This document shows positions 39,481-64,000 of a stretch of DNA of 64,000 nucleotides, piece by piece. Source of the DNA: an uncultured Opitutia bacterium (GTDB lineage Bacteria > Verrucomicrobiota > Verrucomicrobiia > Opitutales > UBA953); the NCBI GenBank assembly GCA_903855995.1, contig CAIOAN010000013.1:78875-142874 (forward strand). The letters are read 5' to 3'. The notes beneath the pieces were generated by a model. It saw only the letters and a program-made list of their open reading frames with translations, searched no databases and was not told where the DNA came from. The stretch's first letter is position 1, and each line of letters opens with the position of its first letter. Position numbers and translations under genes: made by a program.

Positions 39481-39481
39481 C

Positions 39482-41620: not shown

Positions 41621-41667
41621 ATGCAACCCAAGCTCCTCAACCTTTAACACAAAGCCTATTATAAGAC

Positions 41668-43966: not shown

Positions 43967-43975
43967 CTGAGCAAT

Positions 43976-47187: not shown

Positions 47188-48698
47188 TGAGGGATAGAAC
47201 CCCCATCCGCGCGTACGAGAACGAGTCGCTAGACATCGTCACCAGAGATCCCGACAGGGAAAAAAAACAGATAACCCAAGACGAAGCAGAAGCGATTGAA
47301 GCTCTCGTTGAAGTCGAGGAACTTGACATCAACGAGAGTAAGTGGGCACGCCGTACGAGAGGTAATAAGCTAAAACTTGGCCAATACGTAGGCCTAATCA
47401 CCGTTGGTGACCTGTCCGTCGAGATACGAGCCAAAGTAGAAAAAGAGTCGGAGAACGGCCCCAAGACCGACCTGAATAGCCTCATCAGCTTGTTCCTTGC
47501 AGACTCAGACAAAACCGTGTTCAGCGCAAAATCCTATGAACACAAAGGCGACCAGGAGCCGGAAATATTTAAGTATCTTGTCAGGAATTTTTTCGAAAGA
47601 GTAAACGTTAGCTTAAATTTCGGACTACGAAGCGAATACCACACCCAAGAAGAAGTCCGGAACAACTTCAAAGGACGAATCAATTTTCCTAAATATGCAC
47701 TAACAGTCGGAAGAGAGCCCACCCAACTGCCATGCATTTTTGACGAATTCTCACAAGACACGCTACACAACCAAATCATCAAACAAGCAGTACTTACCCT
47801 AAGCAGGCAAAAGATCATCATGCGGTCTAATCGCAAACTATGGACTTCTGCCGCAGGAATACTCGACCAGCTAGATCATGTCTCCGACACTAACTTCAGT
47901 TACGCTGACATTTCAGGGGAAGAAGCGGATAGCCTAGGACAAAATCACTCAGTTATCCTGGATTTCGCCAAAAGGGTTATAGCGGGAAACTCCCCGTTCA
48001 TCCGCAGTAAAGATATAGGAAGAAAGATGGGGTTCACCATGGTATGGGAGATGTCTGCAATCTACGAAAAGGCCATTGGCACTAAGCTGAGGGAATACGT
48101 GAAAACAAAAATTCATCCGGACTGCGAGGTAGTCCTTCAGGGAAAACTGGGAAAAGACAAAGAACGACTAGCTCCTGGGCACACTAGCTGGAACTCATAC
48201 CTAACACACTCCACGCAGGAACAAAACTTCGCGAAGGAAGACACACCGCAACCCGGCGTATTCCGTCTAAAGCCGGACATCATGATCCTTTCTCCCAAGA
48301 ATGAAGTATTGGCAGTTCTTGATACGAAATGGAAAAACTATTCAGGGTCTGAAACCATAAGGGCTCGTAGACGCCTAAAGCGACGCAAGGCTGATCATGA
48401 AGAAATTACTTACAAGAATGTCTCAAAAGAAGACGCCTATCAGATGCTATCCTACGCATGCGCTAAGAAATCTGGAAAAGGTAGCCCAGAGCCCTTGGTC
48501 GGGCTACTGTTCCCTTCGCTCAGCTCAACAACGCCTGAAGAGTTGTATTTCACTAATCTCAATTCCAGGCTACAACTATGCTGGGTACCGGTGACAAGAG
48601 ACGGATTAGCCAATTTCGATCTTGAAAGTATCCTAGGTGCTAAAGCCATAAAAGAGCTTCGTTCCAGAGCTGGGATAAAGGCACAGCAAGCACCCTAA
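47187..48698 (+). CDS. mcrC: McrC-like PD-(D/E)XK nuclease subunit
   Basis: 503 aa. ATGA overlap with mcrB. Nuclease motif KPDIMIL...AVLDTKWK. Confidence 0.75.
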   Translation: MRDRTPIRAYENESLDIVTRDPDREKKQITQDEAEAIEALVEVEELDINESKWARRTRGNKLKLGQYVGLITVGDLSVEIRAKVEKESENGPKTDLNSLISLFLADSDKTVFSAKSYEHKGDQEPEIFKYLVRNFFERVNVSLNFGLRSEYHTQEEVRNNFKGRINFPKYALTVGREPTQLPCIFDEFSQDTLHNQIIKQAVLTLSRQKIIMRSNRKLWTSAAGILDQLDHVSDTNFSYADISGEEADSLGQNHSVILDFAKRVIAGNSPFIRSKDIGRKMGFTMVWEMSAIYEKAIGTKLREYVKTKIHPDCEVVLQGKLGKDKERLAPGHTSWNSYLTHSTQEQNFAKEDTPQPGVFRLKPDIMILSPKNEVLAVLDTKWKNYSGSETIRARRRLKRRKADHEEITYKNVSKEDAYQMLSYACAKKSGKGSPEPLVGLLFPSLSSTTPEELYFTNLNSRLQLCWVPVTRDGLANFDLESILGAKAIKELRSRAGIKAQQAP

Positions 48699-48832: not shown

Positions 48833-51787
48833 ATGTCCGCCAAGCCTCCCTTCCCTTCACGAGTCTTTTGCGGCTGGAGCGGTCCTATCGCTGACGAGGC
48901 GTCGGCCAAGCTGGTCGAGTTGCTGGCCTCCCAAGGGCAATGGCGCAAGGGCCAGGTGATCGACCTCGAGAAGCACCTGCTTCTCGTACCCACGAAACTG
49001 GCGGCTCGTCTCCTGGGTGAGTCACTGGCCAAGCTGGCGATGGCCCAGGCTGAGAGCGGCCTAATGCTTCCGCGCATCGAGACGCCCGAGCAGTTCCTGA
49101 ACTGGGGCGACTCCCAGCTGGAGGTAGCCGGCGGCTCGGACGAGCTGTTGGCCTGGATCAAGGTGCTGACCGGAACCAGCCGTCGCACCCTGAAGGCGCT
49201 TTTCCCGGCAGCCTCCGACGACATGCCCATGGACGGCAACTTCACCTTCGAAGAAGCCAAGAAGTTCGGAGAACAGCTTAACGAGCTCCGCAACCAATTG
49301 GGGGCAGCGGGCCATTCATTCGGAACGGTCAAGAGCGACCGCGAACCGGCTCGCTGGACGCAACTCGCAGCACTTGAGCAGCAATACATCAACAACCTGG
49401 AAGCGCTTGGGCTTACCGACCACAACCAACTGCGCGCCAATCTGGCTAAGGGTGAAGAAGGAGGCCCAGAATGCATCGAACATATCTGGGTCATCGGCAT
49501 CCCTGACCCTGACCTCCTATTGGTTCAGGCCCTCGACAATCTGAAGGAGACCATCGGAGTCACCTACATGATCGGGGCGGATGAATCCGTCTCCGATGGC
49601 TTCGACGACCAAGGGCGGCCGATTCCGGCCTTCTGGAAGAACCGTGAGGTCGATTGGCCTGAGTTCCAGTCCTGCGTACACCTGGCCTCCGACCCTAATG
49701 ACAGCTTCCTCAAGCTCCGACGGCTGATCGGCGGTAAGGTTCCGCAGTCGGGCGTTCTCGCGATCTGCGCCTGCGATCGGCAAAAGGACTCCCCCAAGGT
49801 GGAGAATCTGGTCAAAGATATGGGGGGGAGCGCGATCAACCCTCTAGGGCGAGCCCATGGTGAACACCCCCTTCATCACGCTCTACGTGCCTGGGCGGAT
49901 TGCCTCAAAGGCGGCGACCTAGACTTCCAGGCCCTTCGCCATGCGACCACGATCCCGATGGTCCACAACTTCATCACCGGCGGCGACAAGCCAGAGCACT
50001 TTACCGAAAGTAACAGACTCCTCGACATGCTGGACCAGGATATCCTACGCTTGCCCGCCAGCGAGTTGATCAGGTGGCTCCCTACTCGACCGGAAACAGG
50101 TGATGACCGCGCTAATAAACATATCAAGAAGAGCAACCAGGTCGTACCGTACCTGAAGAAGGCCCTAGAAAAGCGTCAGGCCCATCTCGCCCTCGGATGG
50201 CGAGAGGCCCTAGGAACTACCCTCGAAGACCTCATCGGCAAGGAAGGCATCGACTGGAAGGACGAGGCATCCGCCTTCATGGGAGATGTCGCTGAGCACC
50301 TCGAGAACACCGCACAAGAACTCGAAGCGGCCCTCTCTGGCCAAGGCCTGGAACTCGGGTCGGCAGAAGCCATTAAACTTACCCTTGAGACGGCGGGCGA
50401 GAAGCGCCACCGCCCCAAGCGTGACACTAAGTCGGTCAATATCCCTGGCTGGATCGAATCGACTTGGGAACCCGTACCTCACCTAATCCTGCTCGGACTC
50501 AACGATCACCTCATCCCGAAGACACCTCACGCTCACCCATTCCTCCCAGGTAAGCTCAGGGAGGCACTGGGATTACCCAGCAGCGACACCATCTTCGCGA
50601 CAGCCTGCTATAACCTCGAGCAGCTTTGGCGCCGACGAGTCGGCAAAGGTCGGCTCGACATCATCGTCCTGCAGAAGGACCAGAACTCTGAGCCGCTACG
50701 GCCTTCTCGCATCCTGTTCACGGGTAGCAGCCAGTCCCTCACCGCTAAGGTGACCAAGCTATTTGACGACGCCCCTGAGTCGGAAGCCAAGCCGTACTGG
50801 GAGATCCCCAATGAGCATAAGCTCATCCCCAAGGCCGACCCGGCGACCGTCGAACGAATCAAGTCGAAGATGAATGCCACGTCTTTCTCAGCCTACCTGG
50901 AAGACCCAGCGAATTTCTGGCTCTCCAAGGTCGTCGGTCTCTCCGAGGAGGAACACGACGGCGGCGAAATGAGTTCCGCTGGTTTCGGCAACATGATTCA
51001 CGCGGTCATGGAAGCCTTTGCACGACCACATCTTGGCAAAGAACGCAAAGGAGAACCCGTTGACGCTCTCACCGAAGAACTTCTTGGTGATTTCGCGCGA
51101 CTCATCGATGGACACGTCACCGAGAAGTTCGGTGGCCATCCAGAAGAATCAGTCCTTTTACAAAAAGCCACCGCACTAGCGCGCCTGGGGGCGTTCGCCC
51201 CGATACAGGCTGGACTCTGGGCCGAAGGCTGGGTGATCAACTCCGTGGAAGCTAGTCTGCTCGATACGAAAGTAGGCGAAATGAACATCGGCGGGCGGTA
51301 CGATCGCCTAGACTACCGCATAGTAGGCGAAAAGAAAGAATGGCGCGTCTATGATTACAAAACCTCCCGCGAGGCGAAGACCATCACGAATGCCCACTAC
51401 GGGAAGCCACCCGACGGTGCGCAGGATTTTCTCTTCAAACCGCCAGGCAGCGAATCCGAGCTCCAAGCACGCTGGCGGAATATGCAGATGCCCGTCTATT
51501 ACGAGTGCCTGAAGCGTGAGCTAAATCTAGACGAGAATTCCAGCCTTACTCCCTGCTACATTTCGCTACCTGAAGATCTTACCAAGACCCAGATTAGCGA
51601 TTGGAATGACTACCCTGCCTTCCATCCGGAAGCCTTGAAAGTGCTAAAGGAAATCATCCACCGAATCCGTGAGGCCAAGGCCACTGACATGGCGCCATCA
51701 AGAGACGGTGCTAAATATTCGGCCATTCCCTCCATGGCAAAACGCTCCATGGATACCTATCTCCACACCGACCTCCTCGGAAACTAA
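48833..51787 (+). CDS. AddB/RexB-like PD-(D/E)XK nuclease subunit (no Walker A seen)
   Basis: 984 aa. C-terminal nuclease motif GRYDRLDY ... WRVYDYKTS. Directly precedes the AddA-like gene, matching the addB-addA order. Confidence 0.65.
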   Translation: MSAKPPFPSRVFCGWSGPIADEASAKLVELLASQGQWRKGQVIDLEKHLLLVPTKLAARLLGESLAKLAMAQAESGLMLPRIETPEQFLNWGDSQLEVAGGSDELLAWIKVLTGTSRRTLKALFPAASDDMPMDGNFTFEEAKKFGEQLNELRNQLGAAGHSFGTVKSDREPARWTQLAALEQQYINNLEALGLTDHNQLRANLAKGEEGGPECIEHIWVIGIPDPDLLLVQALDNLKETIGVTYMIGADESVSDGFDDQGRPIPAFWKNREVDWPEFQSCVHLASDPNDSFLKLRRLIGGKVPQSGVLAICACDRQKDSPKVENLVKDMGGSAINPLGRAHGEHPLHHALRAWADCLKGGDLDFQALRHATTIPMVHNFITGGDKPEHFTESNRLLDMLDQDILRLPASELIRWLPTRPETGDDRANKHIKKSNQVVPYLKKALEKRQAHLALGWREALGTTLEDLIGKEGIDWKDEASAFMGDVAEHLENTAQELEAALSGQGLELGSAEAIKLTLETAGEKRHRPKRDTKSVNIPGWIESTWEPVPHLILLGLNDHLIPKTPHAHPFLPGKLREALGLPSSDTIFATACYNLEQLWRRRVGKGRLDIIVLQKDQNSEPLRPSRILFTGSSQSLTAKVTKLFDDAPESEAKPYWEIPNEHKLIPKADPATVERIKSKMNATSFSAYLEDPANFWLSKVVGLSEEEHDGGEMSSAGFGNMIHAVMEAFARPHLGKERKGEPVDALTEELLGDFARLIDGHVTEKFGGHPEESVLLQKATALARLGAFAPIQAGLWAEGWVINSVEASLLDTKVGEMNIGGRYDRLDYRIVGEKKEWRVYDYKTSREAKTITNAHYGKPPDGAQDFLFKPPGSESELQARWRNMQMPVYYECLKRELNLDENSSLTPCYISLPEDLTKTQISDWNDYPAFHPEALKVLKEIIHRIREAKATDMAPSRDGAKYSAIPSMAKRSMDTYLHTDLLGN

Positions 51788-51791
51788 GCCC

Positions 51792-54700
51792 ATGAGCACT
51801 CCCCTCTCCCATCGATTCGGCTCCGAGGTCGTCCGTGCGTGCGCCGGTGCGGGCAAGACCACACGGCTTTCCAAACGGATCATCAAACTCCTAGTCAACG
51901 ACGTCCCTCCTGAGGAGATCATCGCCCTGACCTTCACCCGGGCAGCCGCCGGTGAATTCGTAGCCCGCCTACTCAAGATGCTAGCAGGTGGGGCAAGCAG
52001 CCCCGAAGGAGCCGCCAAGCTCGCCAAGGAACTAGAACTCCCCCCCAAGCGGGCGAACGGCGAACCATGGGGTCAGACATTCTTTCAGGAAAAACTAAAA
52101 CTGACCCTGATGTCCGTCAACCGGATGACCCTAGGCACACTGGACAGTTTCTTTGCAAAAATCGTGAACAACAACCCAACCGAACTCGGTCTGGATGTAG
52201 GACAGGTCAAGACCTCTAGCGAACTAGACGGACCGGCCATCCGCGCCCAAATCACTAAGTTCGCGATGGAACAAGTATATCAGCGCGACCGTCAGGCGAT
52301 CAAAGACCGACTCTCTGAACTCAAACTTGGCAAGGAATCCGCAACCCCGCTGGAGAACTTCAAGGCATTAGTCGAAGAGCTCCACGAGACCTTCCTACTG
52401 GCCAATTCCCCAGAAATCTGGGGCATGCGCCAAAGCATCTGGCCACAGGGTTCGCTCCTTTTCGATAAACCGACGGAAGAGAAAAGCCGAGAAGCCTTCG
52501 CACACATGAAAGCCTGGATAGCGGCATTGAAGCACGAAAGAAAGTTCTCCATCACTCTTTTTAGAAATCACATCAAAGGACTCGAAGAAGCCGGGGAGCG
52601 GGGAGTAGTTAGCAAGACGATAGCCGATAACTACTTTAAATACTATACCGGGCTTGCGAACGCCAAATCAGGTGCCGGCTCAAGTTACACCCACACCCAT
52701 CACGAATCTGGCGACCACACCCAGGAAGTAGACGGCGATACGTGTGCGGCCTACAAGGTATGCATTCGGCATGCTTTATCAGTGTATTTTGAAGGAAAGT
52801 CTAACCAGACACAGTCCGCCTATTCGCTACTCCACACTTATGACCTCTTTTACCGCGATGAACTGCGCAAGTCGGGGCAGCTCGGCTTTAGCGATTACAT
52901 CAACCTACTGCTTAGCCTGCCACCTGACCGTAAACTCGATCTCGAGTACCGCCTTGACTGCAAGTTCCGGCATTGGCTCTTCGACGAGTTCCAGGACACC
53001 AGTAGCCGACAGTGGAAAGTCCTGAATAACTATCTCACCGAAGGCACAAAGCATAAGGATGAATGGTCCACGACTTACTTCGTAGGCGACCCTAAGCAAA
53101 GTATCTTCAGTTGGCGCGGAGGAAACCCAAAACTTCTCGGTCAACGTGAGGCGAAAACACGGGATGAATATGGTGACGATGCCATCATTCCTCTTAAAAA
53201 GACCTTTCGATGTGCCGTGCCGATTGTCGACATGGTCAACGAGCTCTTAGGCCAACCGACCCAGCTCGACAGCATCTTACCTGCGACATCCAAGATCACT
53301 TGGATGAGCAACTTCGAACCACATGAAAGCGCCGTCCAGACGGAGAAAGAGAAAGGTGAAGCCTTTTGGGTCCGCTTAGCGGAGTCGGAGGACAGCTCCT
53401 TGACGCTGGAAGCGCAGTCAAAGTGGATCGTCGAAAACCTCAAAAGCTCCGGCCTCACCGAAGGGCGTTACCTGCGTCCTGGATTTACCTGTGCCATCCT
53501 TGTTTCCCAAAACGGGCAGGCCGCGAAAATCGCTGACATCATCCGTGCAAACGGCCTGGAAGCCGCTGACGAGGCTGACACGCCTATCGCCATGGACAAC
53601 CCCTTCACCGCTGGCTTCGTGGGCATCCTGCGTAACTGTGCCCACCCCGACGACAGTCTATCCAAAGGCTTGGCGAATATGTCTCCCACCGCTAATGCAT
53701 ATGTGGAGAAGGCTGGGGGCTGGGAGGCATGTCGAACCAAGGTCGCCGAACTGTTTTATGCCAAAGGGGCGGCTGAAACACTTCGAGAGCTGACCAAGGA
53801 CGTCTCCCTAAGCGAAGGAGATAAAGCGCCCGAATCGGCAGCTAACTCATGGAAATTCCTGCGCATGAGGCTGCGACAACTCCTGACCCTCGGCGCCCAA
53901 TACGATGAACAAGGCGAACGAGATCTCAGGGGGGCCGCAGACTACATCGCGAATAGCTCCTTGCGCGATAGTGCGGACCCAACCGCGATCCAGGTGCTGA
54001 CAACCCATCGATCTAAAGGCCTGCAATACACGGCTGTCTACCTTCCCTGCCTAAACAGCGGGTATCACTACTTCGGACGGGAAGAGAATCAAGCCCCGCT
54101 GATTCTCGATGACCCCGAGACCTTTGAGCCTAAGTGGATCCTACACCGCCCAGCTAAGCATATACGTCAACTTGACGACGAGTTCCTCAAGGCACAGCGC
54201 ATCGAACAGTCGGACGAAGCCTACGAAGCACTCTGCAAGCTATACGTCGGGATGACCCGCGCGGAGCGACGCCTAGTGCTGATTACGGAAACTCCCGGTG
54301 AAAATAACAGCCCAACGAAAGAGGATCAGTACGACTATGCCAAAATGATCGAGAAGATACTCGGCTCCAAGACAACTCAGCCTATCCCTGAAAACACTAT
54401 CGTCAGGCATTATGGAGATTCATCTTGGATCTCACTCCTCGAAACATCGGTGCGCACAACTAGCGCAGCTGAAGAGAACGACGGCCCGAAGGTTGAATTC
54501 ACTCCAGTCGAATCGCCCTTGAAGTTCCTACCTTCTGACAAGGAACCCACCACTTCTGATAAGGAACCCACCAAGCGGTACCCCTTCCGATCCCGAACCA
54601 AGGTAGACCTTACGAAACCTAAGGGGAAGGACATCGGAAACGTCATCCACGCCCTCATGGAGCCCCTGGAATGGGACGTCCAAGGCTTCCTCCTAGACCT

Positions 54701-55091
54701 CCAGGCAAAGGCGCCTGGGAAGGCAACTGAGGCCCTGCATCAACAAGCCAAGGCCATCATCGAGGGCTGCCTGAAGTCCAAGTCGGTCGCCGCAGCCCTT
54801 TCAGCCAAGCCGGAAGGCGGCACCCTGCTCAAAGAGCGTAAGTTCTCCCTGATGATCGAGTCAGGACAGGTCCTGACCGGTAACGCTGACCGCATCCACC
54901 TCGTTCCTGGCAAGTCCGCCGTCATCTTCGATTACAAGTCGGACACTTGCGGCCTCGAGGAGCTCAAGGCCAAACATGCCCGCCAGATGAGCATGTACCG
55001 TACCGCCACCTCTCGCATCTGGGGAATACCCGAAGACAAGATTCAGTGCTTCCTGATTCACGTGCGCAAGGGGGAGCTGGTGGAGTGCTGA
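51792..55091 (+). CDS. AddA/RecB-like UvrD-family helicase with C-terminal PD-(D/E)XK nuclease
   Basis: Start at ATG 51792 (MSTPLSHRFG), 4 nt after the AddB-like stop. Motifs ACAGAGKTTRL, LFDEFQDTS, TTHRSKGLQY, YVGMTRAERRL, nuclease NADRIHL...AVIFDYKSD. Confidence 0.8.
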   Translation: MSTPLSHRFGSEVVRACAGAGKTTRLSKRIIKLLVNDVPPEEIIALTFTRAAAGEFVARLLKMLAGGASSPEGAAKLAKELELPPKRANGEPWGQTFFQEKLKLTLMSVNRMTLGTLDSFFAKIVNNNPTELGLDVGQVKTSSELDGPAIRAQITKFAMEQVYQRDRQAIKDRLSELKLGKESATPLENFKALVEELHETFLLANSPEIWGMRQSIWPQGSLLFDKPTEEKSREAFAHMKAWIAALKHERKFSITLFRNHIKGLEEAGERGVVSKTIADNYFKYYTGLANAKSGAGSSYTHTHHESGDHTQEVDGDTCAAYKVCIRHALSVYFEGKSNQTQSAYSLLHTYDLFYRDELRKSGQLGFSDYINLLLSLPPDRKLDLEYRLDCKFRHWLFDEFQDTSSRQWKVLNNYLTEGTKHKDEWSTTYFVGDPKQSIFSWRGGNPKLLGQREAKTRDEYGDDAIIPLKKTFRCAVPIVDMVNELLGQPTQLDSILPATSKITWMSNFEPHESAVQTEKEKGEAFWVRLAESEDSSLTLEAQSKWIVENLKSSGLTEGRYLRPGFTCAILVSQNGQAAKIADIIRANGLEAADEADTPIAMDNPFTAGFVGILRNCAHPDDSLSKGLANMSPTANAYVEKAGGWEACRTKVAELFYAKGAAETLRELTKDVSLSEGDKAPESAANSWKFLRMRLRQLLTLGAQYDEQGERDLRGAADYIANSSLRDSADPTAIQVLTTHRSKGLQYTAVYLPCLNSGYHYFGREENQAPLILDDPETFEPKWILHRPAKHIRQLDDEFLKAQRIEQSDEAYEALCKLYVGMTRAERRLVLITETPGENNSPTKEDQYDYAKMIEKILGSKTTQPIPENTIVRHYGDSSWISLLETSVRTTSAAEENDGPKVEFTPVESPLKFLPSDKEPTTSDKEPTKRYPFRSRTKVDLTKPKGKDIGNVIHALMEPLEWDVQGFLLDLQAKAPGKATEALHQQAKAIIEGCLKSKSVAAALSAKPEGGTLLKERKFSLMIESGQVLTGNADRIHLVPGKSAVIFDYKSDTCGLEELKAKHARQMSMYRTATSRIWGIPEDKIQCFLIHVRKGELVEC

Positions 55092-55095: not shown

Positions 55096-56814
55096 ATGGC
55101 TAAAATTTACCCAGAGAAGTACGTCGGAAAAGATGGATCGGAAAAGCGGTTCTTCGAAAAGCTGCGCGGGCTTAACTCCACCCAATGGACTTTCTTTCAC
55201 TCGGTTGATATTGCCAGACATTCGGAGAAAAGGTCCGGTGAGATTGATTTCATCGCCGTATCAAGAACCGCCCTGTTCACCCTTGAGGTAAAGGGAGGAC
55301 GAATCAGCAGGACTGCTGGCGCATGGTACGCAAACGGCCAGGAGATGGAGGAGAGCCCGGTCAAGCAAGCCATCCAGAACTACCATGCATTTGATAAGTA
55401 CCTCAAGAGGTCGAAACTGCCCCGGCTACCCGGAGGCCACTGCTGCGTCTGGCCGGATGTCGCTTTTGAAACGACCACAGGAGAGTGGGAGAAAACGTGC
55501 ATCATCGATAAAGGAGGTAGCGAAATGCTCTTCGATTCCCTGCAAAAGGCAGAGAATCACTTTCGGGATGAGGCAACACGGCTTAGAAGATCAACTCCTA
55601 CCCTTTCCGAGGAAGAATATAGCCGGCTTTGTGGCGCAATCCTACCCGACATCGTACAGCATGTATCAACGAGCCAGGCCCTAGCACGAGATAAGGTGGA
55701 GCTCTTACACCTTAGCCAATCCCAGCTTGGTGTGCTCGATAGAATTGAAGGCAATCCGCGAATGGTCATCTCTGGCCCCGCGGGATCTGGAAAAACCATC
55801 CTTGCGTACGAAGCCTGTAAAAGGATTTTGCGTGAGAATCCTCAATGGAAAGGAGCTTTCGTCTGCCAATCCAACTTCCTGGCGAAAGACATCGATCGAC
55901 GTTACCAGGAGGACAAACTACATGAGCGCCTACTGATTCTTACCCTAGAGTCATTAGCACCATTTTATATTATAAACGGACTCGGCATAGACATGCATGC
56001 TGCCGGAGAAAGCAAGCAACCGATTGAAGTGCGTTTCGTAGGGCACGGACACGCACCAAACCAAACAGCTGGCATCAATTCAAAAAATCTCTTGGATTTC
56101 GTAGTGATTGACGAAGGACAAGACATCAGGAAATGCCCTATATTCCTTACGATGCTCAATTCATGCATCAAAAAGGGCCTGAGCGATTGCAGGCTTATGT
56201 GGTTCCAAGATCTCGACCAAAGTATCGCCGAAAAGTTGGCTCCCAGCTCTCATAAAAAAATGTATCGCGACATCATCGACCCCGACCCGTTAGCCAATTG
56301 CTTTCATTACAAACTTGATCCAATTAATTACAGAAACCCAACCGAGATAGCCAATGTATCCGCCAAGCTGATCGGCCTAAAAACAAAGTCATCATTCAAC
56401 GGAAACATCACGACCTGCATCAAGTTAGTCAAAAGTCAGGAGCCACTCAGCGAACTCAGTAATTTAGTTAAAGAGCTAACCGGAAAAGATGTACCCGATT
56501 CAGATATTGTCGTCGTATCTGTGACCGGCGAATCGTCCAAACGAATCGAGCAAGGCCTAAGGGTATGGGGTAAACTTCTTGCGTACGATACAGAAGAATA
56601 TGACCGATTGGCTCCAAGGATACACCCCAAAGACACCATCCTGTGGTCCAGACTCATCGACATAAAAGGTCGTGAATTCCCAGTCGTAATCCTTATCGAC
56701 TTGCCCGAATTCAAAGACGCTTTTGATAAATATCTGATGTATGTGGCGATGACCCGCGCCAATAGTTTGCTAATTGCGGTTGGATCGGAATCCCAACTTA
56801 GACCACTTACTTAA
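55096..56814 (+). CDS. NERD-domain + SF1 helicase (paralog of 27145..28845)
   Basis: 572 aa. Motifs SGEIDFIAVSRTALFTLEVKGG, ISGPAGSGKT, VVIDEGQDI, IKGREFPVVILID ... YVAMTRA. Starts 4 nt after the AddA-like stop. Confidence 0.8.
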   Translation: MAKIYPEKYVGKDGSEKRFFEKLRGLNSTQWTFFHSVDIARHSEKRSGEIDFIAVSRTALFTLEVKGGRISRTAGAWYANGQEMEESPVKQAIQNYHAFDKYLKRSKLPRLPGGHCCVWPDVAFETTTGEWEKTCIIDKGGSEMLFDSLQKAENHFRDEATRLRRSTPTLSEEEYSRLCGAILPDIVQHVSTSQALARDKVELLHLSQSQLGVLDRIEGNPRMVISGPAGSGKTILAYEACKRILRENPQWKGAFVCQSNFLAKDIDRRYQEDKLHERLLILTLESLAPFYIINGLGIDMHAAGESKQPIEVRFVGHGHAPNQTAGINSKNLLDFVVIDEGQDIRKCPIFLTMLNSCIKKGLSDCRLMWFQDLDQSIAEKLAPSSHKKMYRDIIDPDPLANCFHYKLDPINYRNPTEIANVSAKLIGLKTKSSFNGNITTCIKLVKSQEPLSELSNLVKELTGKDVPDSDIVVVSVTGESSKRIEQGLRVWGKLLAYDTEEYDRLAPRIHPKDTILWSRLIDIKGREFPVVILIDLPEFKDAFDKYLMYVAMTRANSLLIAVGSESQLRPLT

Positions 56815-57497
56815 AAGTAAACGATAGCGCCCGGCGGATGCGATGTCATCGCATCCCTACCTATTGAAATTTCTGCCACCTGCCACCCGAGGCTGCCACC
56901 AGCCACCTGGAATGAATGCAATCAGTGCATGACGTAGTCCTGTCCCTGCCCTGCGTCCACCGTGCGGCGGCCTGGTTTCGCAGCGGTTCACCATGCCAGC
57001 AGATCCCCGCACGACCTAAGGTCGTGGCAGTGTCTGTTGATTTCTATTACGATTTTGCTCGACAGAATGAGAAGCTTCTGATGTACTGTCTTCCTCTGAG
57101 ATAACCAATGCCGAGCACTTGCCGTCGGGGCACCTAATCGAACCGACGGCCGCTTAAGCGACTCAGAAAGCGTGGTAAAACCACGCGGGGCCACTCTGTT
57201 CCGCCGATCCAAACCGGCATCACAGCTCCCCGGGGGCAGTCATGCCCGCATGGCTCAAGTTGACCAGTTGATCAGAGGCCCGGAGGCCCAGAACGCGAAA
57301 AACGACCTAAAACAACGAACTAAGAACTAAGAACAGCCAGAGCAACTAGGGCAGCACGCGGTGCTGCCCCTACCCTGCACGGCTAAGCCGCGAGCGGTTA
57401 GCGGTAAGCGGTTAGCGGTTGGGAACGTCGCGAGACAAAGACCCAACGAACCAAGAACTAAGAACATTTTAACAAAGAACACCTTTTCTTAACCTTT
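56815..57497. repeat. mosaic intergenic repeat block with a ~190-nt unique core (57040-57230)
   Basis: Hairpin plus CCCTACC at 56836-56861, GGTGGC-word array (inverse) at 56873-56910, a module at 56928-57003 shared with 63329-63405, 57270-57294, 57346-57375, and gcggttagcggtaagcggttagcggtt at 57394-57420. Confidence 0.85.
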
Positions 57498-58223
57498 ATG
57501 CACAACAACCCCACACTGCCACCCACCAAACTCGTCCTGCGCACCTACACGACCGACCTCCCGGCCGACGCGGTGAAGCGCAAACTCCAGGAGCTGGTCG
57601 AGAAATCCGCGCTCTTCAACACGTCGTTCCTCAACGGGGAATGGGACGAGGACACCCGCATCGGCGGCCTGGACCTGCACGGCGACATCATCATCCGCCA
57701 TCGAACGGAACGTGCCCAGCGCGAGCTGACGATCGAACACCGGGCCGGCGATGACCCTCTAGTAGTCGAGATCGTGTCCACATTGGGCAAAGCGCTGACG
57801 CGCCGCGCCACCCTCCCCGTCCCGGGCCTGAACCGCCCCAAGGGCATGGCCTACTTCTTCGAGATGATTCAGGGCAACCCCCTAAAGTCCAAGGTCCTCG
57901 TCACGGACGCCGTGGTCGAATCCGCCCATGACTTGCGCTTCGAGGATTACCGCGCAGCCCGCCGAGCGCTGGATTTTCTCGCTAAACTCCGGACGATCAA
58001 GCGCACCTACGATGATCAAGACAGGCACACCCAGACGCAGTATCACCTGGCGAACATCAAGCACCCTGACCCAAAGGTCTGCCTGTTCGAGGGCAAGAAG
58101 CTCTTCCTGCGGAATCAGATCGTGGTGAAGCCGGATCTCGACGGCCCGCACCTGACGATGCACTTCACGCGGCTGGCTAAGGGGAAGATATTGGTGGGGT
58201 GGGCCGAGGAGACGCCGTTCTGA
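57498..58223 (+). CDS. unknown-family protein, paralog A
   Basis: 241 aa. Shares conserved blocks with 59627..60355: PPTKL, RIGGL, GDIIIRHRT, EHRAGD, GMAYFFEMI, DAVxExAHDLxFxDYRxAR, PKVCL, HFxxL, VGWxEE. Confidence 0.65.
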   Translation: MHNNPTLPPTKLVLRTYTTDLPADAVKRKLQELVEKSALFNTSFLNGEWDEDTRIGGLDLHGDIIIRHRTERAQRELTIEHRAGDDPLVVEIVSTLGKALTRRATLPVPGLNRPKGMAYFFEMIQGNPLKSKVLVTDAVVESAHDLRFEDYRAARRALDFLAKLRTIKRTYDDQDRHTQTQYHLANIKHPDPKVCLFEGKKLFLRNQIVVKPDLDGPHLTMHFTRLAKGKILVGWAEETPF

Positions 58224-58661
58224 GGCGCTAGAAGCGCCGAAGAACCACTAGTTGACCGGTTGATCAGTTGGCCGGTTGGCCAGAGCAAGACGAACTAGAG
58301 GCACAGAGGCTCAGAGGCTCGGTTGACCAGACCATGCGAGAGTATCGAGTATGGAGTATTGAGTGTAGGGGGAGGCAGCGCTAGGCGTGTTCTTTGTTTT
58401 TTGTTCTTGGTTCATGGTTCGTTGTTTATTGCAGCGGTCTCTAGGTAGGGACGGCGGAGCCGCGAGGTGGAAGCGGTTGGCGGGAGAGACATAGCTGTAT
58501 CGAGGTAGGGACAGTACCACGTGCTGTCCTAGGGACTTTTCCGGCTTGAGTGTAAGCGGATATCGGACACTCTTTAGTCATCGGTCGAGAGGCCGATGAG
58601 AAAGGTCCCTCCTCGGTGACAAGAGCTCTCGGGAGCTCTTCCGTCAGGATAGCTGAGGAGG
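58224..58661. repeat. mosaic intergenic repeat block
   Basis: gttgaccggttgatcagttggccggttggcc, 58298-58330 (gaggc..ggctcggttgaccag), gagtatcgagtatggagtattgagt, gttcttggttcatggttcg, GTAG hairpins at 58444-58467 and 58504-58534, and the 43-nt element at 58528-58570. Confidence 0.85.
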
Positions 58662-59261
58662 TCAACCTTCACCGATCACCGCAAGGTGCACGATGGGATT
58701 ACCCAAGGCCTCAATGGGCCTGGTGTCTTGGCTAACAATCTGACGCCAGACCGCCCACGTGCAGTAATCGGCAATCTGCAGTTCGAGACTGGAAGCAGAC
58801 GAATGGAAGTGAACCGTGCGATGTCCTGCGCCCTGACGGACGGCCTTCATGATGGCCTTGCGAGAACGCTGCAAAGGCACGCGATCGGCATATACGGGAC
58901 AATCGCCGGAGGCCGGCTGCGATAACGACAAGACCAACTTGAAGAGGTCGACGTAAACCTGAGACAAATCCTCAGGCGGCTTAGTGCAGGTCGACTTATC
59001 CAAGACGATTGCGAAGACCTGGGAACCAGCACCCGAAGCCGCCAAACGACGCATGAAAGCCCCTCGGACGAATGGGGTATTGGCGCTCGCATGGAATGAC
59101 TCGATATCATGCCCCTGCGCATTTAGCTCATAGCGCAGACAAGACAGTTCACCGGAGCGGATGGCGCTGATATCCAGCAAGATTGCGCAGACCATCAGGA
59201 ACGGGGTCCCTTTTCCGGTGAAATCGAAGTTTCCTGCTTCATCTAGGAATAGACATTTCAT
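58662..59261 (-). CDS. DUF3800-family protein (second copy)
   Basis: 199 aa. N-terminal CLFLDEAGN and C-terminal LELQIADYC. Confidence 0.6.
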   Translation of the reverse strand: MKCLFLDEAGNFDFTGKGTPFLMVCAILLDISAIRSGELSCLRYELNAQGHDIESFHASANTPFVRGAFMRRLAASGAGSQVFAIVLDKSTCTKPPEDLSQVYVDLFKLVLSLSQPASGDCPVYADRVPLQRSRKAIMKAVRQGAGHRTVHFHSSASSLELQIADYCTWAVWRQIVSQDTRPIEALGNPIVHLAVIGEG

Positions 59262-59626
59262 GACGGGTATTCGAAGAGGCTTCGCCTCGACCTCAAATCG
59301 CCAAAGGCCTCAGAACGGGCATAGAGGGTGACCACTAAGAAAGGTAGGGGCGCGACGGTGTCGCGACCGGGGGTAAGGCTCTTTGAGGTCGCAATATGCG
59401 ACCACAAAAGGGATCCGGACGGACGCGTCGCCGACGTGTCCCTACCCAATGCAGCTAGGGCAGCACGCGGTGCTGCCCCTACCTCGATGCAGCGGATGCA
59501 ATGTCATCGCATCCCTACCCGATGCAATCCCTGCCACCTGCCACCCGAGGCCGCCACCTGCCACCTGAAACGGGTAACTGGCCTACTTGACAGTTGGTCA
59601 AGTGCGGGCAAATCGGCGCCCGAACC
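59262..59626. repeat. mosaic intergenic repeat block: cluster of four GTAG-headed hairpins plus a GGTGGC-word array
   Basis: Hairpins at 59343-59368 (GGTAGGG first), 59421-59447, 59455-59483 and 59494-59520 (each ending CCCTACC). Word array at 59529-59572. Confidence 0.85.
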
Positions 59627-60355
59627 ATGCAACCGCCTACCTCGATTCCCCCGACGAAGCTCCAGATTCGCGCCTATGATTGTAAATTGACCGCCCGGAA
59701 GGTGAAACTGGGGCTGGAAAAGCTGGTGGAGTCCTCCCCGGCCTTCAATGAGTCCTGGCTGCTGGGGGAATATGACATCGGCTCCCGCATCGGCGGCCTG
59801 GGGCAATACGGGGATATCATCATCCGCCACCGCACGGTGATGCGCGGCAAGCATGAGCTGACGGTCGAGCACCGCGCGGGCGACGAAGCCATGGCCCTCG
59901 AGATCGAGGCGGCCTTCGCCAAGGAGCTGACCCCGAAGGAGCCGCGTATGGCCCCGGGCAAGAAGCGCCCGGAAGGGATGGCCTATTTCTTCGAGATGAT
60001 CCGTACCTCGACGCTGAAGAACAAGGTGCTCATCGCGGACGCGGTCCTCGAGGAAGCCCATGACCTGTGCTTCGACGATTATCGCGAGGCCCGGGCCAAG
60101 CTCGAGTTCCTGAGCATGGTCCCGCGTCTCGGCGTCCTCCACACCAGCCTGGATGAGCGCATCCAGAAGGCCTACCGGGAAGCCAATCAGGTCCACGCCT
60201 GCCCGAAGGTCTGCCTCTACCAAGGCAAGAAGATCGCCCTGCCCCACCGGATGGTGGCGATCTCGGTGAAGCATGACTACATCCTGACCCTACATTTCGC
60301 CAAGCTGCCCGGATGCAAGATCGTGGTGGGATGGGTGGAGGAGAGGCAGTTCTGA
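59627..60355 (+). CDS. unknown-family protein, paralog B
   Basis: 242 aa from ATG 59627 (MQPPTSIPPTKL, aligned to the paralog A start). The tracked ORF starts at 59594. Confidence 0.65.
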   Translation: MQPPTSIPPTKLQIRAYDCKLTARKVKLGLEKLVESSPAFNESWLLGEYDIGSRIGGLGQYGDIIIRHRTVMRGKHELTVEHRAGDEAMALEIEAAFAKELTPKEPRMAPGKKRPEGMAYFFEMIRTSTLKNKVLIADAVLEEAHDLCFDDYREARAKLEFLSMVPRLGVLHTSLDERIQKAYREANQVHACPKVCLYQGKKIALPHRMVAISVKHDYILTLHFAKLPGCKIVVGWVEERQF

Positions 60356-60755
60356 CGCGCCGAAGGCGCCGAAGAACCATTAGTTGACCCGTTGACCAGT
60401 TGGCCGGTTGGCCGGAACGGACAACTAGCTGGCCGGTTGACAAGTTGACAGGTGGACAAGGGAGGCAGCGCGGCGGAGCCGCGACAAGATGAGAGGCCCG
60501 GAGGCTCAGAGGCTCGGTTGATCAGAGGAGAGACACCGTTTCGGGTGGCGGGTGGCAGCCCCAGGGCTCGGGTGGCGGGTGGCAGCCTTATCCGTTCCGC
60601 CCTCGATTCAGCCCTCAACGCTGTCATCGACTCAGTGATCCACCTGGTATCAGCCCAACCGCCAACCGCTAACCGCCAACACCACCTTACTATTTATTAG
60701 TGTCATTATACTGAATGAGGTTTGCCACGTTTTCGGGTTTGGGCAGAATGGGGTC
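60356..60755. repeat. mosaic intergenic repeat block
   Basis: gttgacccgttgaccagttggccggttggcc, ggccggttgacaagttgacaggtggacaaggg, 60491-60525 (gagaggcccggaggctcagaggctcggttgatcag), GGTGGC-word array at 60537-60587, cccaaccgccaaccgctaaccgccaacacc at 60655-60684. Confidence 0.85.
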
Positions 60756-61217
60756 ATGAGCAAAACCAAGACCCTGAAAGGTGAGAAAATGTACAAGCGG
60801 GCTTACGCCTTAGCCCAGAAGGCCCACGCCGGCCAGACCCGCAAAGACAAGAAGACGCCCTACTTCGAGCACGTGAAGGAAGTCGCTTCGCGTGTCAGCG
60901 GCTGGGACCTGAAGACGGTCGCCATCCTGCACGACACGATCGAAGACACCAAAGTTACCGCCCAGTCCCTCCTCGACGAAGGCTTCCCGGAGCAGATCGT
61001 CGCCGCGGTCGTGGCGCTGACCAAGCCGAAGGACTGCAAGGACTACATCGGAGAAGTCCGCCGTAAAGTCCTCCCCAACAAGCTGGCACGGGTCGTCAAG
61101 ATCTCGGACAACTACGCAAACATGCGTGACCGCGTGAGCGAATGGCCCAAGAGCGCCAAGGCCCGCAAGAAGCTCCACGAGTACGCCAGCTCAATCGCCT
61201 TGCTGACGAAGAAGTGA
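60756..61217 (+). CDS. small HD-domain protein, RelA/SpoT-hydrolase-like (small alarmone hydrolase type)
   Basis: 153 aa. Motifs AHAGQTRKDKKTPYFEH and AILHDTIEDT. Confidence 0.75.
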   Translation: MSKTKTLKGEKMYKRAYALAQKAHAGQTRKDKKTPYFEHVKEVASRVSGWDLKTVAILHDTIEDTKVTAQSLLDEGFPEQIVAAVVALTKPKDCKDYIGEVRRKVLPNKLARVVKISDNYANMRDRVSEWPKSAKARKKLHEYASSIALLTKK

Positions 61218-61289
61218 GGAAGGGGCGCGACGATCTCGCTACCGGGGTGAGGGTTGAGGGACACGGGCGGATGCGATGTCATCGCATCC

Positions 61290-61655
61290 CTACCTGGCGG
61301 CGGATCGGAGGAGGCGGAGGAGTTCGGGGAAGCGTCCGTGGAAGGAAAATCCTTGGACGCGGAGGCGACGACGGCCGGCGATGATGTCGGCGGACCAGAA
61401 CGGGCCGTCGACCATCACGGCCTGATCTTCCAGCTGCGGCTCACGCGCCCAATCCCAGAGGCGCGCCTCGGTGGCGAGCTGCTGGAAGCGCCGCCAGTGC
61501 GACTGGCCAAACGGTCGCGAACCGGCGCAGCCATAGAGGGGATGCCGGCAGGCGAGATCGCCGTGGAGAACGCCCGCAGCAGCATCCAAGTGTATCTGCG
61601 GCCCAGAGGGCCTGCCCTCTCCCTCCCAGAACGTGATTTCGATTTTGTTTTTCAT
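61290..61655 (-). CDS. hypothetical protein
   Basis: 121-aa high-GC ORF starting 11 nt from the tRNA-like gene. No motif recognised. Confidence 0.35.
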   Translation of the reverse strand: MKNKIEITFWEGEGRPSGPQIHLDAAAGVLHGDLACRHPLYGCAGSRPFGQSHWRRFQQLATEARLWDWAREPQLEDQAVMVDGPFWSADIIAGRRRLRVQGFSFHGRFPELLRLLRSAAR

Positions 61656-61666
61656 TCTAAAAGGGG

Positions 61667-61737
61667 TTGGCCCTGCGGGATTCGAACCCGCGACTTGCGG
61701 ATTATGAGCCCGCTCTTACCGGCTGAGCTAAGGGCCT
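61667..61737 (-). tRNA. tRNA-Met(CAU)-like gene, possibly atypical or degenerate
   Basis: The reverse complement reads AGGCCCT TA GCTC AGCCGGTAA GAGC GGG CTCATAA TCC GCAAGTC GCGGG TTCGAAT CCCGC AGGGCCA A. D-arm, T-arm (GGTTCGAATCC) and anticodon loop CTCATAA are perfect. Only 3 nt lie between the D-stem and the anticodon loop, which is ~3 nt short of canonical, and positions 1:72 would be A.A. No encoded CCA. Confidence 0.65.
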
Positions 61738-61928
61738 GGAAATTGGAGGGCTCGAGGGCCAGAGGGCTGGAGGGAGGTAAATGAGAGGCCCGGAGGCTCA
61801 GAGGCTCGGTTGATCAGAAGAAAGACAGCGTTTCGGGTGGCAGGTGGCGGCCTCAGGTGGCGGGTGGCGGGAAACTTCGAGCTAGAGGCCCGGTGGCTCC
61901 GTTGATCCGCGGGCAGGAAACCAGAGAA
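61738..61928. repeat. mosaic intergenic repeat block
   Basis: ggagggctcgagggccagagggctggaggg words, 61783-61817 (gaggcc module), GGTGGC-word array at 61829-61871. Confidence 0.8.
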
Positions 61929-61963
61929 GTAAAAAATTAAGAAGGGGTGAGATTAGCCCCTTC
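61929..61963 (-). terminator. rho-independent terminator (minus strand)
   Basis: Stem gaagggg/ccccttc (61941-61947 / 61957-61963) with a 9-nt loop. On the minus strand it is followed by ttaatttttt. Confidence 0.6.
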
Positions 61964-62806
61964 AACGCTGACCTTTCACCGGATTAGGTCTTCCAAAGAC
62001 GGCAGTGGAAGACTTCCCGATTTATCCACGTCCGCGGTTTGCACCTGCGGCGTAGCCAGCACGACTGCCTTTTTAAAGATGTGGCGATTCATCTATGCAC
62101 GACCCGCTACTCAAACCTGGATTCCCCGTCTGCCTTGCGAGCAGCTAGACGCGCTAGCGTCTCCGTGTTCACCGTGTTTAACGGTCCTCGTCTTGCGGAC
62201 GAGAACGCGGCTGAGTTCACCGAAGTGCCCAGCATTAAGTCGCTTTCGCGGATCGTTGGTAACGACGTTGCGTTTTGATATCCACTAAAGGACAAGGCGC
62301 TACCCCTGCCGACTTGAATAGCAAACCAATGGAGATGCGCGTTACCTGCGGTTCGAATTCCTTTTGAGAACCCGAATGCCACACACCTCCTGTAGGGACC
62401 CGACGGCCCCCCACGGAATCGCAAGTTCGCGTGACCCGGTTACCCGGACCCCGTCCACTCTCGATCTGGCCTGACGCCCTCGGCTTCCGCCTCGAACGTC
62501 CGACCTTGGCTTCGATCTCAATCCTAGAAGTCTAGTTGCGCGCAGTGGTCGTCACTAACGTTACCGCACTTGCTACGAAGTCATCCTCGCAAGGCTTTGC
62601 GCACCTTCTTCAAACCTAGTTCCGCCGCAGCGAAACTCTCAGATCGGCCAGTGCTTAGTCGTCCGGCCATCACAGCCTGGCGCAGTCCTATTGGAGGATA
62701 CTGCTTTCACCACCTCACGGTGGCATATCTTATGGACCCTAAGCGGCCCGTTGTTTGTCGCCCGGCGTTTGAGATGATCGCGTGCAGGGCTATGTTAAAT
62801 GAACAG
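61929..62806 (-). ncRNA. candidate ~0.9-kb structured non-coding RNA (class unknown)
   Basis: No convincing ORF on either strand. The minus strand has a promoter-like TTGACA-17-CATATT at one end and the terminator at the other. Many short perfect stems are capped by GNRA or UUCG loops when read on the minus strand (ccacc-GTGA-ggtgg, cgc-GAAA-gcg, cac-TTCG-gtg). Confidence 0.35.
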
Positions 62807-62812
62807 GACCTG

Positions 62813-62841
62813 AATATGGTGTTAACAGTTATTTATGTCAA
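62813..62841 (-). promoter_or_regulatory. sigma70-like promoter candidate for the ncRNA
   Basis: On the minus strand, TTGACA (62841-62836), a 17-nt spacer, then CATATT (62818-62813). It sits inside the only AT-rich patch of this region. Confidence 0.3.
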
Positions 62842-62884
62842 ATTATAGTTATGTTAGCAGTCGTAAAGTGTTGGTGTGTAATGA

Positions 62885-63477
62885 AATAAATTTTAATAGA
62901 TAGTTGGCGGGGGACCAGACCGAGGTAGTGCAAAAGTGGGAGGCAACGTTTCGGGTGGCGGGTGGCAGCCTCGGGAAGCGGGTGGCGGGAGAGACAGCGC
63001 TAGGCGTGTTCTTCGTTCTTGGTTCATTGTTTTTTGCAGCGGTCTAGAGGTAGGGCGTGGCTCTCCGAGCCCGCCGTTGAGCGCTGAGAGAAAGTGCGAG
63101 AGTATCGAGTGTGGAGTATCGAGTATAGGCGGCGAGCTACGCAGCGTTGGTCCGCGAACGGACGGCTGGGGACAGCCGTCCCTACCGGCGAAGGCGGAGC
63201 CTTCGAGGGGACACGTGGGCATGGTGACATGGGGGCAAGGTGCGTAAGCGAGGGCCGCACGCCCCTACCCGTAACAGGTGGAAGCGGTTGGCAGTTAGCA
63301 GTTGGGAATACAAACGAGGCAGCTAGGGCATGACGTAGTCCTGCCCCTACCCTACAGCCACCATGCGGCGGCCGCGGCTTCGCAGCAGATCACCATGCCA
63401 GCAGTTCCCCCACGCGACATGGGGTCAGACACGTTCAGGATTCCGAACGAAGTCAGACCCCGTCGCGCGGCGTGGCG
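62885..63477. repeat. mosaic intergenic repeat block
   Basis: GGTGGC-word array at 62947-62989, gttcttcgttcttggttcattg, GTAG hairpins at 63049-63075, 63160-63186 and 63323-63352, gagtatcgagtgtggagtatcgagtat, and a module at 63329-63405 shared with 56928-57003. Confidence 0.85.
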
Positions 63478-63834
63478 TCAGGCTTTCTTCACGTAACACG
63501 CCTTGAGGCCGATCTGGGCGCCGTCGATTTTGCAATCGATCTCGTGATCGCCGTCGACGAGGCGAATGTTCTTGGCCTTGGTGCCGCCCTTGAGCGTGCC
63601 GGCGCTGCCGCGCAGTTTGAGATCTTTGATGAGGACGACGGTATCGCCGTCGGCTAGGACGGACCCGTTGGCATCCTTGACGACGCGAGGGCCGTCTGCA
63701 GCCGGAGCGCCCTCCCCTAGCTCCGCCGCGGTCTTTTCCCATTCATGCCCGCAGGTCGCGCATTCCCAGATGGTGGCGTGCGAGATGATTTCGGTCATCG
63801 TGCATTCGGGGCAAGGGGAAGGCATTGGGGACAT
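63478..63834 (-). CDS. phnA: PhnA/YjdM zinc-ribbon protein
   Basis: Start at an internal Met (MSPMPSPCPEC). Motifs CPEC...WECATCGHEW, VVKDANGSVLADGDTV, IRLVDGDHEIDCKIDG, closely like E. coli PhnA. The longer tracked ORF runs into repeats. Confidence 0.85.
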   Translation of the reverse strand: MSPMPSPCPECTMTEIISHATIWECATCGHEWEKTAAELGEGAPAADGPRVVKDANGSVLADGDTVVLIKDLKLRGSAGTLKGGTKAKNIRLVDGDHEIDCKIDGAQIGLKACYVKKA

Positions 63835-64000
63835 GCTGGCATGGTGAACGGCTGCGAAGCAGAGGCAAGGGGCGTAAGTGGGCAAAGTGCAAAGGTGAAC
63901 TCGCGTGGAACGCGAGAGGGGGCAAGTGGGCACGGTGACACGGGGACAAGGGAGGCAAAGCGGCGGAGTCGCGACAAGATGAGAGGCCCGGAGGCTCAGA
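63835..64000. repeat. mosaic intergenic repeat block (cut by window end)
   Basis: ggggacatgctggcatggtga (as at 18262), ggcaagtgggca words, and acaagggaggcaaagcggcggagtcgcgacaagatgagaggcccggaggctcaga (as at 60460-60510). Confidence 0.8.

Follow-up and report, generated by a model that had tools for sequence, protein, structure and literature searches.

Identification of a GOLLD RNA gene

In a 64,000-nt stretch of DNA from an uncultured Opitutia bacterium (Verrucomicrobiota; Opitutales; assembly GCA_903855995.1, contig CAIOAN010000013.1, positions 78,875 to 142,874; hereafter the window), we identified a locus that, taken as a whole, is very probably a stand-alone gene of the GOLLD family (RF02032) specifying a full-length RNA. 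GOLLD RNAs are among the largest bacterial non-coding RNAs and have mostly been studied in phage and prophage settings; the family reportedly goes back to Weinberg et al. 2009. The class is already known, and the locus adds a member to it in an unusual, non-phage chromosomal setting.

The segment at 61929-62841 had been singled out in an initial annotation as a candidate large structured non-coding RNA, with GOLLD and ROOL named as RNAs of this kind, and its coordinates proved right. When the whole window was searched with Rfam 15 at the gathering score, two matches were obtained, namely a tRNA (61667-61737) and, on the minus strand, GOLLD (179.8 bits, E = 6.6e-49), which covers positions 1-416 of the 416 in the model and is not truncated. 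The gathering score (GA) of RF02032 is 150 bits, and the model describes only the conserved 3′ domain of GOLLD. The Rfam search that the initial annotation had proposed as a check gave GOLLD only, besides the tRNA, so that GOLLD stands and ROOL, which had no Rfam match, falls away. Like other members of the family, the locus combines a full 3′-domain match above threshold with a total length of ~875 nt and a same-strand tRNA behind it; overall lengths in the family are ~700-850 nt or more.

A different large RNA class (ROOL, OLE, HEARO/omega RNA, raiA or a group I/II intron) would have in its favour general features such as size, many GNRA-like loops and tRNA adjacency. None of these families was matched at the gathering score across the window or at E ≤ 1 in a sensitive scan of 61500-63100, which beyond GOLLD and the tRNA returned only antisense-tRNA noise. 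Because of this permissive scan we treat these classes as excluded and give them next to no probability. ROOL is likewise a large ornate RNA found near tRNA islands and also forms RNA-only cages with an internal linker (PMC12286853), but its sequence and fold are unrelated to those of the RNA described here.

A degenerate pattern built from conserved 3′-domain motifs detected 73 loci in GTDB species representatives and >120 in IMG/VR. Seven sampled matches from several phyla were confirmed as GOLLD by Rfam at 157-223 bits and, because 179.8 bits falls within this range, the score of the window GOLLD is typical for the family. Among the pattern loci, only four, all in metagenome-assembled genomes (MAGs) of Verrucomicrobiota/Opitutales (L045, L008, L035 and L050), align with the window over the full ~870 nt, at ~70% identity. 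A clade-specific motif of the 5′ domain led to 57 further metagenome loci, ten of which are 94-97% identical to the window; by sequence, this domain is recognizable only in Verrucomicrobiota, a few Bacteroidota and one viral contig. The full collection of homologs, taken from Verrucomicrobiota/Opitutales MAGs and freshwater metagenomes, comprises 61 loci with identities from ~60% to 97%.

Covariation in both structured domains

Covariation shows that a 5′ domain of ~417 nt and a 3′ domain of ~450 nt are joined via a CAAAA-loop hairpin and a linker, and that at least three long-range pairings exist. Compensatory pairs were counted in 22 sequences per domain, with column shuffles and slid partners as controls. 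For the 5′ domain, RNAalifold run on 22 non-redundant sequences yielded 104 pairs in which 98.3% of the cells are standard pairs, and 37 of the 104 are compensatory, compared with 13.4 ± 2.6 after shuffling and 2-8 after sliding. The Rfam consensus structure of the 3′ domain was transferred via the window row to 22 relatives, where pairing holds in 85% of the cells and compensatory changes are seen in 37 of 98 pairs (18.7 ± 2.5 shuffled, 5-9 slid). The window itself forms 86 of the 98 Rfam pairs canonically in the Infernal alignment, and the whole 875-nt RNA is more stable than its shuffles (minimum free energy z = −3.28, 20 shuffles).

The proposal of a large structured RNA is thus borne out by the full RF02032 match above GA and by covariation of both domains in 22-24 relatives. 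The individual stems read off the sequence in the initial annotation fared less uniformly. Five of the seven (ccacc-GTGA-ggtgg, cac-TTCG-gtg, ttctcgtc-cgcaa-gacgagga, gtcttcca..ttggaagac and ccgcagg-tgcaaa-ccgcgg) are covarying helices, whereas cgc-GAAA-gcg and cgcaa-agcc-ttgcg have no such support because their bases covary with other partners.

The segment had also been called free of open reading frames (ORFs), which is only roughly true. ORFs of 113, 105 and 92 amino acids are present, but a Pfam search of the three gave no match and none of them is kept open in relatives. A decayed or unrecognized protein-coding gene, or an antisense ORF such as the one of 113 amino acids at 61947-62288 on the plus strand, could appeal to these ORFs, which lie on both strands, and to a weak imbalance of variable sites among codon phases (160/191/175, chi-square p = 0.028), in which no marked third-position pattern is seen. 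However, most relatives carry stops in every frame, 499 of 568 indels (88%) are not a multiple of three and shift the frame, and the substitutions in helices are compensatory, not codon-like, in a region that is conserved among relatives. We therefore hold a coding origin to be almost certainly wrong.

The variable linker sets itself apart from both domains. Compared with the close relatives L207 and L203, identity reaches 96-98% in the structured domains but is 87-89% in the linker and 78-88% in the flanking genes; in relatives of ~70% identity, linker identity drops to 32-40%, whereas their structured parts retain 61-74%. Because the structured parts are kept while linker and flanks have diverged, this pattern argues for purifying selection, with the known GOLLD architecture.

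Long-range pairings

To find long-range pairings, the alignment columns were scanned for runs that do not belong to the nested fold, and three were retained after counting. Combined, they comprise 17 pairs, of which 99.3% are paired and 8 of 17 are compensatory, counts that overstate the significance because discovery and counting used the same data.

The first is a pseudoknot between GGUAACG, in the internal loop of the first 3′-domain hairpin, and CGUUACC, at the 3′ flank of the linker (7 bp, 100% paired, three positions covarying). It recurs in the same place with unrelated sequences in env-38, a GOLLD of solved structure (UGAUAGAC/GUCUAUCA), and in L031, L075, L017 and L059, and the Rfam consensus is likewise complementary at this position. 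A single-sequence shuffle test alone was not significant; the pseudoknot is supported because of its positional recurrence in env-38 and four other phyla or viral contigs together with its covariation within the clade. In the second pairing, a 5′-domain hairpin loop contacts the start of the linker in three states among relatives, CCAAU/AUUGG, CCAAC/GUUGG and CUGAC/GUCAG. The third joins the loops GGCGG and CCGUC (97.5% paired, two pairs with double changes) and, judged by its position, may be the analogue of the inter-chain kissing loop B4 of env-38 (253-257 with 410-414).

Comparison with solved GOLLD cages

The solved GOLLDs are protein-free 10- to 14-mer cages with rings made of the 3′ domains, caps made of the 5′ domains and a disordered linker that faces the interior; env-38 is a 14-mer (PDB 9MEE) and the RNA of Streptococcus agalactiae a 12-mer (PDB 9L0R) (PMC12286853, PMC12990946). 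The env-38 copy that we compared has 816 nt instead of the full 833 nt (~17 nt short), with drifting offsets, so that only local motifs are comparable. The window RNA shares with env-38 and the other solved GOLLDs the large 5′ domain, the CAAAA-loop hairpin, the variable linker, the pseudoknot between this hairpin and the linker flank, the CGCAA-type loops and the terminal UAAUCUCA loop; env-38 also adjoins a Met-type tRNA. Residues A447 and A448 of the CAAAA-equivalent loop of env-38 form the inter-chain A-minor bridge B6 (PMC12286853, Supplementary Table 2).

Unlike the A+U-rich env-38, the window GOLLD is G+C-rich (55%), and the loop of its L21a-equivalent hairpin is CUAGCG, where env-38 has CGCAA. 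Judging from the nearest GOLLD relatives in GTDB and from neighbouring genes, its host is probably a freshwater member of the Verrucomicrobiota/Opitutales. Among relatives, the equivalent loops carry the palindromes CUAG, UUAA and UCGA as well as non-palindromic sequences; a self-kissing contact at this loop was considered and dropped, as the distinct loops were too few. Local motif comparison with the 816-nt copy identified no counterpart of L20 or of the B7 kissing loop of env-38.

Because the window RNA keeps the A-rich B6 loop, the CGCAA-type loops and the B4-placed loop-loop pairing, the same assembly as in the solved GOLLDs is likely, with a number of chains that cannot be predicted. By homology, the RNA would most likely self-assemble without protein into a closed, dihedrally symmetric cage, with equatorial rings built from the 3′ domains, caps from the 5′ domains and an inward-pointing linker.

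Predicted transcript ends

The promoter-like site noted in the initial annotation, TTGACA-17-CATATT, is indeed present on the minus strand (62841-62813). It agrees with the consensus at 10 of 12 positions and is the best of three promoter-like sites in the region, compared with 0.6 ± 0.8 sites in shuffles. Its position is kept in ~20 stand-alone relatives, which have TTGCAT, TTGCAC or TTGACA, a 16-17-nt spacer, TATAAC, TATCAC or CATATT and an A+T-rich upstream region, all at a constant distance from the conserved RNA start CCUGUUCAUUU / CAGUUCUUU. The −10 hexamer ends ~5-8 nt upstream of the start of RNA homology, and four loci (L203, L241, L236 and L198) are 95.7% identical to the window over exactly 61939-62808, with unalignable flanks. 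Because the −10 element ends at 62813, a start near 62808-62805 fits, and transcription of the minus strand from this sigma-70-like promoter would begin there. In ~20 loci, the palindrome TGTTAACA (62819-62835 in the window) or the related AACTGTGAC / CTGTTAACA is conserved in or just upstream of the GOLLD promoter and may be an operator for some regulator.

At the other end, transcription would stop at the terminal hairpin and its U-tract (61963-61931), giving a product of ~875 nt. The hairpin (P27/L27) has a folding energy of −11.2 kcal/mol and was passed over by a terminator scanner solely because its 9-nt loop exceeds the scanner's limit of 8 nt. The hairpin described as a terminator in the initial annotation is present and is also the conserved terminal hairpin of GOLLD: it is the last hairpin of the Rfam model (consensus GguGUAaUCUCAgcC), and its loop CUAAUCUCA matches the consensus GUAaUCUCA and is near-invariant among relatives. 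A U-tract follows this hairpin in the window and in many relatives but is missing from those in which the next element is immediately a tRNA or a second GOLLD. Hairpin and U-tract probably also serve as an intrinsic terminator.

The adjacent tRNA and GOLLD-tRNA units

The tRNA-like gene that had been noted behind the element in the same orientation was recognized by both ARAGORN, as Met(CAT), and Rfam, 194 nt downstream of GOLLD. Its best Escherichia coli matches (81%), in 44 of 5426 genomes, are annotated as tRNA-Ile, and its position 1-72 pair is a mismatch; it is probably a lysidine-type tRNA-Ile2 rather than a tRNA-Met. A homologous tRNA closes every GOLLD-tRNA unit of the window's clade. 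The number of tRNAs accompanying the GOLLDs of relatives ranges from 1 to 18, and the window has one.

Tandem GOLLDs occur in seven loci (L045, L050, L222, L231, L216, L213 and L235), in which sub-type A is followed after ~10 nt by sub-type B and then by tRNAs. Here the additional, different GOLLD ends ~10 nt upstream of its neighbour and, because neither a promoter nor a U-tract lies between the two, a di-GOLLD-tRNA transcript is implied.

Elsewhere, a tRNA sits within the GOLLD linker itself, as in L138 (1425-1496, viral contig), L017 (1953-2025, Mycobacterium), L059 (4820-4892, Archaeoglobaceae-binned contig) and L063 (3503-3572, Bifidobacteriaceae MAG). The "archaeal" 5.5-kb contig L059 (222.9 bits) is probably mis-binned or viral. 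Two papers (PMC12286853 and PMC12990946), citing Morgado et al. 2020, mention GOLLD within tRNA arrays of Mycobacterium. The Mycobacterium GOLLD resembles that of the window in residing in a cellular genome and in its tie to tRNAs, and the same model gives L017 (M. alsense) 221 bits. The two differ in that the Mycobacterium copies lie in arrays of >10 tRNAs and have a further tRNA within the linker, whereas the window GOLLD is flanked by one tRNA and its linker contains none.

Such units raise the question of whether GOLLD is the 5′ part of a GOLLD-tRNA precursor with a role in the expression, processing or delayed release of tRNA(CAU). In L045, L213 and L200, tRNAs lie 2-100 nt downstream without a U-tract, the tRNA-Ser of L203 starts 8 nt past GOLLD, and for tRNAs embedded in linkers "inhibited storage" has been proposed (PMC12990946). 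The window RNA, however, ends in a hairpin and a U6 tract that are followed by 190 nt of repeat DNA before the tRNA, and ARAGORN found no tRNA inside its linker. We consider a precursor role unlikely, though by no means negligible; because cages could form under this reading too, we regard it as a variant of the stand-alone GOLLD explanation and not as an alternative to it.

The constancy of the tRNA linkage points to a role tied to tRNA or translation and is, speculatively, the only lead on GOLLD function. In this lineage, the link would consist of tRNA(CAU), to which relatives would add one to three more tRNAs or another GOLLD within the same transcript. One might speculate that the cage sequesters, stores or shields tRNA or ribosomal components during stress or phage attack.

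A chromosomal locus with divergent alleles

In this lineage, GOLLD occupies a conserved place on the chromosome and is under purifying selection. Prophage cargo was considered and rejected for this locus: a blastn search of the element against 50,697 phage records gave no match, the neighbours are non-phage, and the clade-specific 5′-domain motif is absent from IMG/VR. PHROG scans of ten neighbours returned one strong match (the HD hydrolase described below) and one weak match to a family of unknown function, and no phage gene lies within ~10 kb of GOLLD. L251, which represents the window sequence itself (99.99% identity) and continues it to the right, adds yjdM, hypothetical genes, a sulfatase and a TGT-family gene, none of them a phage gene; neighbours include a sulfatase and PSCyt/PSD proteins typical of the Planctomycetes-Verrucomicrobia-Chlamydiae (PVC) group. 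In these respects the locus differs from the solved GOLLDs, as it does in having its own predicted promoter and terminator and one adjacent tRNA, with none in the linker.

If the locus were instead the remnant of a GOLLD-tRNA array that came with a former prophage or mobile island and has lost expression and function, this would agree with the typical residence of GOLLDs in phages and prophages (PMC12286853), with the single tRNA of the window compared with two to four in relatives, and with the adjoining island hotspot. Against a relic stands the high identity of the structured regions (96-98%) next to a linker and flanks that have diverged to 78-89%, and the compensatory changes are maintained, the promoter geometry is conserved and all positions of the Rfam model are matched. 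We judge such decay to be very improbable.

Within the conserved locus, the GOLLD itself varies. Over the equivalents of 61287-63887, the allele of L207 and L218 is 96-97% identical to the window, with flanks at ~87-88%. In L201, L202, L208 and L199, the flanks are 87-88% identical to the window (88% in L207), but identity falls to 70% in the GOLLD, behind which lie tRNA-Leu and tRNA-Arg. The slot after GOLLD holds tRNA-Ser in L203 and only repeat DNA in the window. Because equally similar flanks enclose divergent GOLLD alleles and differing tRNA numbers, the segment between tRNA(CAU) and yjdM behaves as a replaceable GOLLD(+tRNA) cassette, which suggests cassette replacement at a fixed locus.

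On a broader and distinctly tentative view, which we think improbable in its full form, freshwater Verrucomicrobiota would have turned GOLLD into a domesticated host gene. It would form a GOLLD(+tRNA) cassette that can be swapped between tRNA(CAU) and yjdM, beside a small alarmone hydrolase and a defence-island hotspot; its cage would serve the cell instead of a phage, for example as a shield or buffer for tRNA or the translation machinery when phages attack, and its divergent alleles would be exchanged by recombination.

Several points weigh against the assignment to a full-length, cage-forming GOLLD. In the Infernal alignment, the window departs from canonical pairing at 12 of the 98 Rfam pairs. 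The 5′ domain can be related to the published helices P1-P13 by positional analogy only, as the env-38 copy is ~17 nt short and this half lies outside Rfam. The long-range pairings were scanned for and counted on one alignment, and the oligomer number, which varies among solved GOLLDs (10, 12 and 14), is set by helices in which the window RNA differs. Promoter, start and terminator are predictions from sequence and conservation, and the phage or prophage residence usual for GOLLD is not seen at this locus.

The locus reveals neither a new RNA class nor a function. What it adds is a clean chromosomal GOLLD case, with predicted ends bounded by homology, 61 natural variants, two alleles at one locus and tandem GOLLDs in relatives; this series can be used for covariation-guided mapping of contacts within and between chains and for asking whether the host benefits from the RNA.

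Genomic surroundings

To the left of GOLLD lie, in order, the tRNA(CAU), an ORF of 121 amino acids (orf121), an HD protein of 153 amino acids, a 242-amino-acid protein with a paralogue, and a DUF3800 gene (coordinates in Table 1). Homologs of orf121 form only two clusters, and its amino-acid identity of 82-84% falls below the regional nucleotide identity (87-88%); orf121 may therefore not be an actual gene, and the DNA conserved there may have another role. The HD protein resembles, by sequence, small alarmone ((p)ppApp/(p)ppGpp) hydrolases; its homologs (38-51% amino-acid identity) occur near GOLLD in many Verrucomicrobiota loci, and a weak one (33%) is found in the viral contig L075. The 241/242-amino-acid family had no Pfam match, and its AlphaFold model (predicted local distance difference test, pLDDT, 88) had no fold match in the PDB (template-modelling score, TM, < 0.3); its members turn up again close to Verrucomicrobiota GOLLDs of either sub-type (L207, L215, L220 and L023). 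Both this family and orf121 were considered as possible partners, an idea that was dropped.

From ~58.4 kb down to ~20 kb (20000-58422) extends a defence island in which the G+C content falls to ~0.50-0.55. Strain L252 (99.7% identical) diverges from the window at 58422 and lacks the island sequence to the left of this point, and L254 (97.6%) diverges at 60543; therefore, the island is strain-variable, while GOLLD, the tRNA and the HD gene are constant.

Table 1. Coordinates of the GOLLD locus and of neighbouring features in the window.
Feature	Position	Strand	Remarks
Predicted GOLLD RNA transcript	61931-62808	−	~875 nt; predicted ends, from homology
GOLLD 3′ domain, conserved	61944-62391	−	RF02032 match; ~450 nt
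GOLLD-type 5′ domain	62392-62808	−	417 nt, ~20 helices; outside the Rfam model
First 3′-domain hairpin (P14, env-38 nomenclature)	62330-62391	−	CAAAA loop at 62362-62366, invariant in relatives
Variable linker	62265-62329	−	~65 nt, poorly conserved
−35-like TTGACA	62836-62841	−	promoter scan and conserved position
−10-like CATATT	62813-62818	−	17-nt spacer to −35, containing the palindrome TGTTAACA
Terminal hairpin GAAGGGG-CUAAUCUCA-CCCCUUC (P27/L27) and UUAAUUUUUU	61931-61963	−	hairpin 61963-61941, U-tract to 61931
Pseudoknot strand GGUAACG	62340-62346	−	internal loop of first 3′-domain hairpin; partner 62258-62264
Pseudoknot strand CGUUACC	62258-62264	−	linker 3′ flank; partner 62340-62346
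5′-domain hairpin loop CCAAU	62690-62694	−	partner AUUGG 62326-62330 at linker start
AUUGG	62326-62330	−	partner of loop 62690-62694
Loop GGCGG	62487-62491	−	partner CCGUC 62402-62406
Loop CCGUC, last 5′-domain hairpin	62402-62406	−	partner of 62487-62491
tRNA, anticodon CAU	61665-61737	−	same strand as GOLLD; ARAGORN Met(CAT), Rfam 61667-61737; 194 nt downstream
orf121 (121 amino acids)	61290-61655	−	adjoins tRNA; two homologous clusters only
HD protein, 153 amino acids	60756-61217	+	nearest (p)ppApp hydrolase PDB 7smg, 4.6e-18; phrog_990, 7e-38
241/242-amino-acid family, two paralogues	57498-58223 and 59627-60355	+	48% identical; narrow family, 125 homologs
GmrSD	25334-27139		defence island
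NERD helicases (two)	27145-28845 and 55096-56814		defence island
MZB/helicase pair	28855-33806		defence island
Dcm+HATPase+Z1+HNH restriction module	35781-42597		defence island
Dcm + HinP1I-like restriction module	42719-45620		defence island
McrBC	45655-48698		defence island
PD-(D/E)XK+UvrD	48833-55091		defence island

Short modular repeats, in which motifs like GAGGCCCGGAGGCTCAGAGGCTCGG and GGTGGCGGGTGGC occur, form an intergenic mosaic across 56800-64000; they are present in both orientations and flank almost all genes there. Examples of these REP-like repeats are found at 60489-60579, 61781-61871 and 62899-62989, and the direct copies at 61781-61871 and 62899-62989 bracket the GOLLD gene; as a speculation, the bracketing repeats might mediate the exchange of the cassette.

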